Notes: generated from the sequence alone by a model not told the origin. DNA of 64,000 bases from Candidatus Woesearchaeota archaeon (GCA_964601175.1 CAZRMJ010000001.1:11280-75279), one strand, 5' to 3'; counted from the first letter of the stretch, positions 6,988 through 7,569 are shown. Numbers and translations: made by a program.

Positions 6988-7569
6988 ATGGAAATAAATG
7001 AAAAGATGAAGTTTCTTAACCCTTCAATAAAGAATAACCTCTCTAAATTAATGAAAGAAATAGAGGAGAATATTGGCCATTTGTATGATCTTGCTACGAT
7101 AGATGAAAAGACCGGAGTTTACAATAATAAGTTTTTTTCTACCGTTTCAGAGATGGAATTTGATAAGGCTAAAAGGGGAATGGGTAAATTAAGTATTTTG
7201 ATGATTGATTTAGACAACTTCAAAAAACTTAATGATACTTACGGCCATTATACTGGAGATGAGGTTCTTGCAAGACTTGGAAAAATTCTTAAGATTAATA
7301 CTAGAAAATATGATATAATATCTAGATTTGGAGGGGAAGAGTTTGTTTTACTTCTACCAAATACAGCGGCTAATAGGGCTAAAATTGTGTGTAATAGAAT
7401 AAGATCAAAAGTTGAAAAAGATCCTTTAATGAAAAAATATCATATGACTATCTCTGGAGGACTTACTTCTTACAAAGATAAAGATACCTTAAAGAAAATG
7501 AAAGAAAGAGCAGATAAAGCAGTTTATCAGGCAAAAAGAAGTGGGAAAAATAAGATAGTAGTTATTTAG
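6988..7569 (+). CDS. GGDEF-domain diguanylate cyclase (GGEEF active site, RxxD I-site)
   Basis: 193 aa. DLDNFKKLNDTYGHYTGDEVL, RKYDIISRFGGEEFVLLLP, TISGGL and ADKAVYQAKRSGKNK cover the full GGDEF domain. Only about 40 aa precede it. Confidence 0.9.
   Translation: MEINEKMKFLNPSIKNNLSKLMKEIEENIGHLYDLATIDEKTGVYNNKFFSTVSEMEFDKAKRGMGKLSILMIDLDNFKKLNDTYGHYTGDEVLARLGKILKINTRKYDIISRFGGEEFVLLLPNTAANRAKIVCNRIRSKVEKDPLMKKYHMTISGGLTSYKDKDTLKKMKERADKAVYQAKRSGKNKIVVI

Follow-up and report, generated by a model that had tools for sequence, protein, structure and literature searches.

A sensor-less 193-residue GGDEF protein of a Pacearchaeal genus as a predicted minimal, native archaeal diguanylate cyclase

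The 193-aa open reading frame considered here, which lies within a window of 64,000 nucleotides (the whole stretch of DNA that was analysed, from Candidatus Woesearchaeota archaeon, GCA_964601175.1 CAZRMJ010000001.1:11280-75279), encodes an intact GGDEF domain of archaeal origin and is probably a minimal native archaeal diguanylate cyclase, predicted to be active, to be held as a constitutive zipper dimer and to be limited by its own product. Coordinates of the gene, its functional elements and its informative neighbours are collected in Table 1.

Table 1. Features of the GGDEF locus and archaeal marker genes, in window coordinates.
Feature	Position	Strand	Basis or remark
Minimal GGDEF diguanylate cyclase gene (predicted)	6988..7569	+	193-aa ORF; Pfam, TIGR00254, AF2 model, RNA contigs
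GGDEF catalytic domain	7093..7554	+	Residues 36-189, Pfam envelope
TATA box TTTAAATA	6959..6966	+	Perfect copy, -29 from ATG, leaderless-type spacing
Conserved N-terminal motif, residues 1-12	6988..7023	+	K6, L10 and P12 at least 90% conserved
Stalk helix, residues 12-37	7021..7098	+	AF2 helix; putative dimerising coiled coil
I-site RxxD, R106-K-Y-D109	7303..7314	+	Sequence; aligned with RxxD of DgcR and PleD
Active-site motif GGEEF, residues 115-119	7330..7344	+	Sequence; invariant among family homologues
Alpha/beta hydrolase, convergent	7562..8407	-	Pfam Hydrolase_4 8e-23; overlaps GGDEF stop codon by 8 nt
Thermosome (group II chaperonin)	8643..10259	-	Pfam Cpn60_TCP1 6.8e-177; archaeal marker, syntenic anchor
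Threonyl-tRNA synthetase	47469-49187		Archaea-specific editing domain PF08915

The identity of the domain was confirmed: the protein covered the Pfam GGDEF profile PF00990 from end to end (profile positions 1-161 of 161; E=1.5e-40, 139.1 bits against a cut-off of 23.8) and matched TIGR00254 at 4.9e-48 (163 bits, cut-off 37.4), while its residues 21-190 aligned to the NCBIfam SiaD model at 1.5e-44, a score under the equivalog cut-off of that model. Approximately 35 residues precede the domain, and the protein has no sensor, receiver domain or membrane anchor, in agreement with the original prediction of an intact, stand-alone GGDEF protein of 193 aa with a GGEEF motif and an N-terminus too short to contain an obvious sensor. 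The nearest solved relatives are active cyclases, namely DgcR (2.8e-34), PleD (3.7e-30) and WspR. Matches to the Cas10 palm (PF22335; 26.3 bits, under the cut-off of 27) and to the GdpP-type GGDEF were sub-threshold and are attributable to the shared fold; the Cas10 model of PADLOC reached an E-value of 3.4e-4 across 78 residues, no cas genes were found near the gene, and PADLOC run on the gene and its neighbours returned no defence-system context.

The catalytic and allosteric residues are intact and conserved. Residues R106-K-Y-D109 are separated from G115-G-E-E-F119 by the five residues IISRF, so that the RxxD motif claimed at the canonical spacing could be read directly from the DNA. Conservation was assessed in an alignment of 110 homologues of 185-240 aa and in a second alignment of 41. 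In the larger of these, D74, D76, K79, N82, G86-H87, D91, R106, D109, R113-F-G-G-E-E-F119 and K183 were at least 98% conserved, R106 and D109 were additionally invariant among the 41 homologues, and the metal and guanine residues D74, K79, N82, H87, D91 and K183 were invariant in the family alignments. D74, N82 and D91 were assigned by aligning the protein to DgcR and PleD; we take D74 to be the metal-binding Asp (PleD D327), N82 and D91 to be the guanine-reading Asn and Asp (PleD N335 and D344), K183 to be the phosphate-binding Lys (PleD K442), and R106 and D109 to form the allosteric product-inhibition site. The position equivalent to PleD R446 is occupied by K187 (within AKRSGKN), most of the family having GRN where this protein has GKN; the change is conservative, but it is the one weak point among these residues and counts against an active enzyme. 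The position that distinguishes Hypr GGDEF domains was Asp (D91) in both the 41 and the 110 homologues, and the signature Ser (GacA S348, at the position of PleD D344) was absent.

A structural model was obtained with AF2 (pLDDT 91.9, pTM 0.80), in which a short helix (residues 3-7) and a conserved L10-N-P12 turn lead into a long helix (residues 12-37) that is followed by the GGDEF fold. Foldseek aligned the model to more than 50 diguanylate cyclase chains at a probability of 1.00 with TM-scores up to 0.86, and its alpha/beta fold is the palm-like one seen in cyclases of known structure. Among PDB entries it was most similar to a fusion of the GCN4 zipper to WspR (3i5c, E 4e-18), then to DgcB (6ttr), SiaD (7e6g) and PleD/DgcR. 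A heptad core of I14, L18, L21, I25, N28, L32 and L35 can be read from the sequence of the long helix. As GGDEF domains function solely as dimers, a constitutive dimer held by this zipper is the most economical reading of the model. The amphipathic N-terminal helix of approximately 26 residues would most likely zip two chains into a parallel dimer, in which the two GGDEF domains would be brought together and each GTP-loaded site (GGEEF, D74, N82, D91 and K183) would contribute half of a molecule of c-di-GMP. Activity is probably constitutive given the lack of a sensor domain, and output would then be set by the level of expression and capped by the product at the RxxD I-site, a cap that would matter in a genus without a recognisable c-di-GMP phosphodiesterase. 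Dimerisation through the helix is predicted from the model and the sequence, and c-di-GMP as the product, with feedback control through the I-site, is what the conserved residues lead us to infer. The N-terminal motif of K6, L10 and P12 could be a partner-docking element.

The gene has its own promoter. A perfect copy of the TATA box TTTAAATA is positioned at -29, and of the 463 long open reading frames of the genome, 63 had this sequence, allowing at most one mismatch, starting at -29, compared to approximately two per other upstream position. The TATA box claimed at leaderless spacing is therefore statistically supported far beyond chance, and -29 is the dominant promoter position of the genome. 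There is also evidence that the gene is transcribed, as contigs of an approximately 97% identical strain from three wastewater RNA-Seq runs tile positions 6956-7766. These contigs start at 6956, 32 nt before the ATG, although a contig end is not a mapped transcription start, and their assembler depth was 24-150 across the GGDEF gene, against 3-10 immediately before it and 90-148 over the thermosome, RNA contig depth being a poor measure of expression. Among the listed differences between the two strains there were 19 substitutions in 17 codons, of which two altered the amino acid (V120I and P146N); the differences listed are hence almost all synonymous, which indicates purifying selection on the gene. 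With a GC content of 0.301 against 0.308 for the window, the gene is as AT-rich as its surroundings. The promoter and the wastewater transcripts uphold the earlier view of an expressed, host-adapted gene. Upstream, the RNA contigs of the same strain skip 74 nt at 6776-6849, within a hypothetical 112-aa open reading frame at 6574-6912 (-); since 74 is no multiple of three, this frame is either variable between strains or not a real gene. The skipped stretch itself folds weakly (z -1.9) and is single-copy within the window.

The window belongs to a contig of 137 kb, part of a 616-kb genome with approximately 650 genes, estimated at 88% completeness and 0.58% contamination, and the organism is contained in wastewater, activated-sludge and aquaculture metagenomes. 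A bacterial or chimeric contig had been named as the outcome that would overturn the original prediction; the contig proved to be archaeal, as seen from the thermosome, the archaeal threonyl-tRNA synthetase and synteny in nine congeneric genomes. Metagenome-assembled genomes (MAGs) with close homologues of the cyclase were deposited as Nanoarchaeota or Pacearchaeota archaeon. At the nine congeneric loci, a GGDEF orthologue of 55-67% identity lies adjacent to a thermosome of 69-85% identity, in a conserved block that comprises a variable hydrolase, the thermosome, a thioredoxin-like gene and two further genes encoding 456 and 167 aa. The alpha/beta hydrolase adjoins the GGDEF gene at four of the nine, and no conserved functional partner was found beside the gene, its neighbours in the genus being the thermosome and housekeeping genes. 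Elsewhere in the window, a 1034-aa beta-helix protein, probably a surface protein, is encoded at 11077-14181 (+), a 348-aa protein with a eukaryotic-type topoisomerase IB catalytic core (PF01028, 9.6e-15) at 23606-24652 (+), and a 934-aa fusion of a UvrD-type helicase with a PD-(D/E)XK nuclease at 60033-62837 (-). At its gathering threshold the Rfam tRNA model recovered four of the six tRNAs in the window, missing tRNA-Ala(GGC) at 10965-11035 and tRNA-Leu(AAG) at 37844-37928, both of which were found by ARAGORN.

Outside the genus, at 4 of 11 loci, the orthologue lies zero to three genes from a P-type cation ATPase of approximately 880 aa, twice in family f4, once in f9 and once in one genus of f1 (L114:7972-10605, L116, L115 and L109, in relatives G046, G056, G049 and G034, respectively). 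The f4 orthologue also adjoins NrdR and a Na+/H+ exchanger-TrkA_N protein, while the sole P-type ATPase match in the genome studied here is approximately 60 kb from the GGDEF gene. The proximity to the ATPase is a weak lead, possibly indicative of a link to ion transport or of relic synteny. Bacterial transporters of the Na+/H+ exchanger-TrkA_N type are regulated by cyclic dinucleotides (c-di-AMP, CpaA), and one such fusion of a Na+/H+ exchanger with TrkA_N (RCK) is encoded within the window at 53394-55070 (-).

The domain is widespread among the relatives of this organism. Of 17 genomes in the genus, 14 carried it, the other three being 76-82% complete. It was also found in 37 of the 61 genomes sampled from the order and, as at least one GGDEF domain, in 191 of 401 high-quality genomes of the phylum (48%), spread over 154 of 281 genera. 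Up to six copies per genome were observed in the phylum, many of them in open frames of 330-725 aa. Among control genomes, GGDEF was matched in the bacterial controls and in no archaeal control. The reported rarity of GGDEF domains in archaea (PMC10249747, PMC5847659), which was also part of the original prediction, therefore holds for cultured archaea but not for this phylum. Within family f1 the domain was patchy (11 of 27 high-quality genomes), from which it follows that the gene is dispensable outside the genus.

Maximum-likelihood analysis of 124 GGDEF domains placed the orthologues of approximately 193 aa from families f1 and f9 in one clade (SH-aLRT 97), to which those of f3, f4 and f8 were sister (SH-aLRT 89), and the resulting group of 42 rows was entirely archaeal with an internal order that matched taxonomy, reflecting vertical inheritance. 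No supported bacterial sister lineage was recovered, as an unresolved polytomy surrounds the archaeal clade, and the best bacterial matches to the protein, which were all that a scan of genome contigs for a donor retrieved, were 33-44% identical. The phylogeny proposed as a way to find the donor thus returned no donor lineage that could be named, and a recent transfer with a traceable donor is absent, as the family is long resident and vertically inherited.

The pathway around the enzyme is sparsely represented. The absence of EAL, HD-GYP and PilZ domains that had been noted for the window extends to the whole genome, in which none was detected at E<=1 (the genome being 88% complete), nor were MshEN domains or the c-di-GMP-I (RF01051) and c-di-GMP-II (RF01786) riboswitches found. 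Among related genomes, EAL (above cut-off), PilZ, MshEN and RF01051 were found in 0 of 61 and RF01786 in 0 of 40. The proposed genome-wide search for partners accordingly came back empty for these classes, but not for HD-GYP (HD_5), which was recovered from sister families: 12 of the 61 order genomes, mainly in f3, f4, f5, f7 and f9, carry it with the GYP motif present (PF13487 up to 2.7e-31, at L125-L128 in relatives G038, G056, G060 and G059), and several of these genomes also carry two to four GGDEF domains. Neither EAL nor HD-GYP was found in the 17 genomes of the genus, and a tblastn search with the HD-GYP proteins of the relatives gave no match in the genome studied here. The order therefore holds a partial c-di-GMP toolkit and the genus an orphan cyclase, and with every one of these classes absent from the genus or the genome, no downstream pathway can be named.

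The genome does encode a DisA-type diadenylate cyclase at C1:90972-92057 (-), approximately 15.7 kb past the right end of the window (DAC 2e-23, DisA-linker 1.3e-22), as well as a DHH-DHHA1 protein. Judging from these genes, the 0.6-Mb genome thus appears to carry two cyclic-dinucleotide synthases, one of c-di-AMP type and one of predicted c-di-GMP type. A role for the GGDEF protein as a stand-in for a diadenylate cyclase in ion homeostasis was rejected on account of the DisA-type enzyme. The original prediction had further listed two other candidates with a nucleotide-cyclase fold in the window. The CYTH protein at 49863-50417 is real (Pfam 8.2e-11), but the CYTH fold differs from the GGDEF fold, and the 697-aa open reading frame at 44607-46700 (-) was rejected as a cyclase homologue, as nothing in Pfam matched it at E<=0.001, loosening the limit to E<=10 brought up no cyclase family, and PADLOC gave no hit.

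Several other explanations of the gene can be weighed against an active c-di-GMP synthase. It could be mainly non-enzymatic, i.e. a nucleotide-binding or scaffold protein such as a sensor of GTP or c-di-GMP acting via the I-site or the N-terminal motif, and K6, L10 and P12 are indeed conserved without a known catalytic role, pathway parts were not found, and several archaeal GGDEF proteins had catalysis-independent phenotypes in Salmonella (PMC13725321). However, every catalytic residue has been kept even though members of the family are only 48-68% identical, which would not be expected of a pure scaffold, and there is no second GGDEF in the genome to supply the ligand, making this reading unlikely. 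The domain could instead make a different product, 3',3'-cGAMP as do Hypr GGDEFs, c-di-AMP or linear pppGpG, in keeping with the lack of any c-di-GMP-specific receptor or phosphodiesterase in its own genome. This is quite unlikely given that the guanine-reading D91 and N82 are invariant, that the Hypr Ser is absent here, and likewise from 20 archaeal MAG proteins (PMC13725321), and that a DisA-type diadenylate cyclase for c-di-AMP is already encoded in the genome.

It is also possible to speculate that the product is let out of the cell or handed on to a partner, either a host or a neighbouring bacterium, whose c-di-GMP-controlled behaviour would thereby be manipulated; the archaeon could then do without a receptor or phosphodiesterase of its own. 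The genus has the cyclase as an orphan, the reduction of the genome to 0.6 Mb suggests dependence on a partner, and the habitat is bacteria-rich activated sludge and wastewater; but there is no exporter, no secretion genes are linked to the cyclase and no host is known, sister families with HD-GYP and several GGDEFs point to internal turnover, and an I-site that holds the product low is unfit for a role in export, so that this proposal is regarded as highly improbable. Least probable is an origin of the gene as bacterial contamination, or as a passenger without a role that was recently acquired by horizontal transfer. The GGDEF family is overwhelmingly bacterial, with bacterial matches of the modest identity given above, but contamination, a chimera or recent transfer is contradicted by the archaeal markers on the 137-kb contig and the shared locus in nine congeneric genomes, by the archaeal-only clade that follows taxonomy, by the native GC content and promoter, and by purifying selection and transcripts, and was rejected on these grounds.

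The preferred reading remains a native, product-limited diguanylate cyclase, and what surrounds it can be extended more tentatively. It is conceivable, though doubtful as a whole, that in this Pacearchaeal genus a sensor-less, self-limiting cyclase makes c-di-GMP that is read by a class of receptor new with respect to bacteria, and that is removed without EAL or HD-GYP or transferred to a partner cell. Were this so, GGDEF signalling would be a native trait, widespread in approximately half of the DPANN archaea of Nanoarchaeota type, and not something imported sporadically from bacteria, and if the enzyme is active a new type of receptor and a new route of turnover must exist. Production and use of c-di-GMP by archaea are still to be settled: archaeal GGDEF proteins were first studied in 2026, with only partial in-vivo support (PMC13725321), and measurements of the messenger from archaeal cells are lacking (PMC10249747). 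The 193-aa protein is about the simplest object on which to test this, with neither a sensor nor a membrane anchor, and a screen for binders would cover approximately 650 genes. To this the surveys add that GGDEF is common rather than sporadic in one phylum of DPANN archaea, that the family is vertically inherited, and that the genus is without every known receptor and phosphodiesterase.

Among known systems, the GCN4::WspR fusion (3i5c) matches the archaeal protein in length and in predicted architecture, with a short parallel coiled coil joined straight to an I-site GGDEF domain, the sequences aligning over residues 7-190. That fusion is engineered and bacterial, whereas the archaeal protein has a natural helix that follows a conserved K-x3-L-x-P and for which the oligomeric state is a prediction. 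SiaD of Pseudomonas aeruginosa (7e6g) and DgcB of Caulobacter (6ttr) similarly combine a coiled-coil stalk with a GGDEF domain and are both product-inhibited, but each has a longer N-terminal region, and SiaD needs the stalk-binding partner SiaC, no such partner gene flanking the archaeal gene. PleD, WspR and DgcR (1w25, 3bre and 6zxm) share the catalytic core, the RxxD spacing and 37-40% domain identity, but are switched by phosphorylated REC domains, while the 193-aa protein has no receiver.

The nearest published counterparts are archaeal. Sidorov et al. (Mol Microbiol 2026; PMC13725321) described GGDEF proteins in archaeal isolates and MAGs, mostly DPANN, several of which were termed "GGDEF only" with an N-terminus too short for a domain, a form that is rare in bacteria. 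In that study, three of the seven MAG proteins that were cloned gave GGAEF-sensitive signals in a Vc2 riboswitch reporter, and no MAG protein was consistent over all three in-vivo assays (PMC13725321). The DPANN GGDEF-only proteins (e.g. KHO53289.1 and KHO53915.1; PMC13725321) resemble the present one in their short N-terminus, intact GG(D/E)EF and signature residues and lack of the Hypr Ser; two such proteins gave GGAEF-sensitive Vc2 signals, their likeness to the 193-aa protein being one of description (PMC13725321). The gene thus belongs to an already described kind, short GGDEF-only DPANN proteins having been published in 2026. Archaeal GGDEFs were there called sporadic and usually single-copy, with phyletic distribution, phosphodiesterase co-occurrence and receptors left open (PMC13725321), whereas the present survey places the domain in 48% of the genomes of one phylum, in up to six copies, and the known partners are absent in the genus. 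This phylum-wide prevalence, together with the lack of known partners in the genus, goes beyond the published account.
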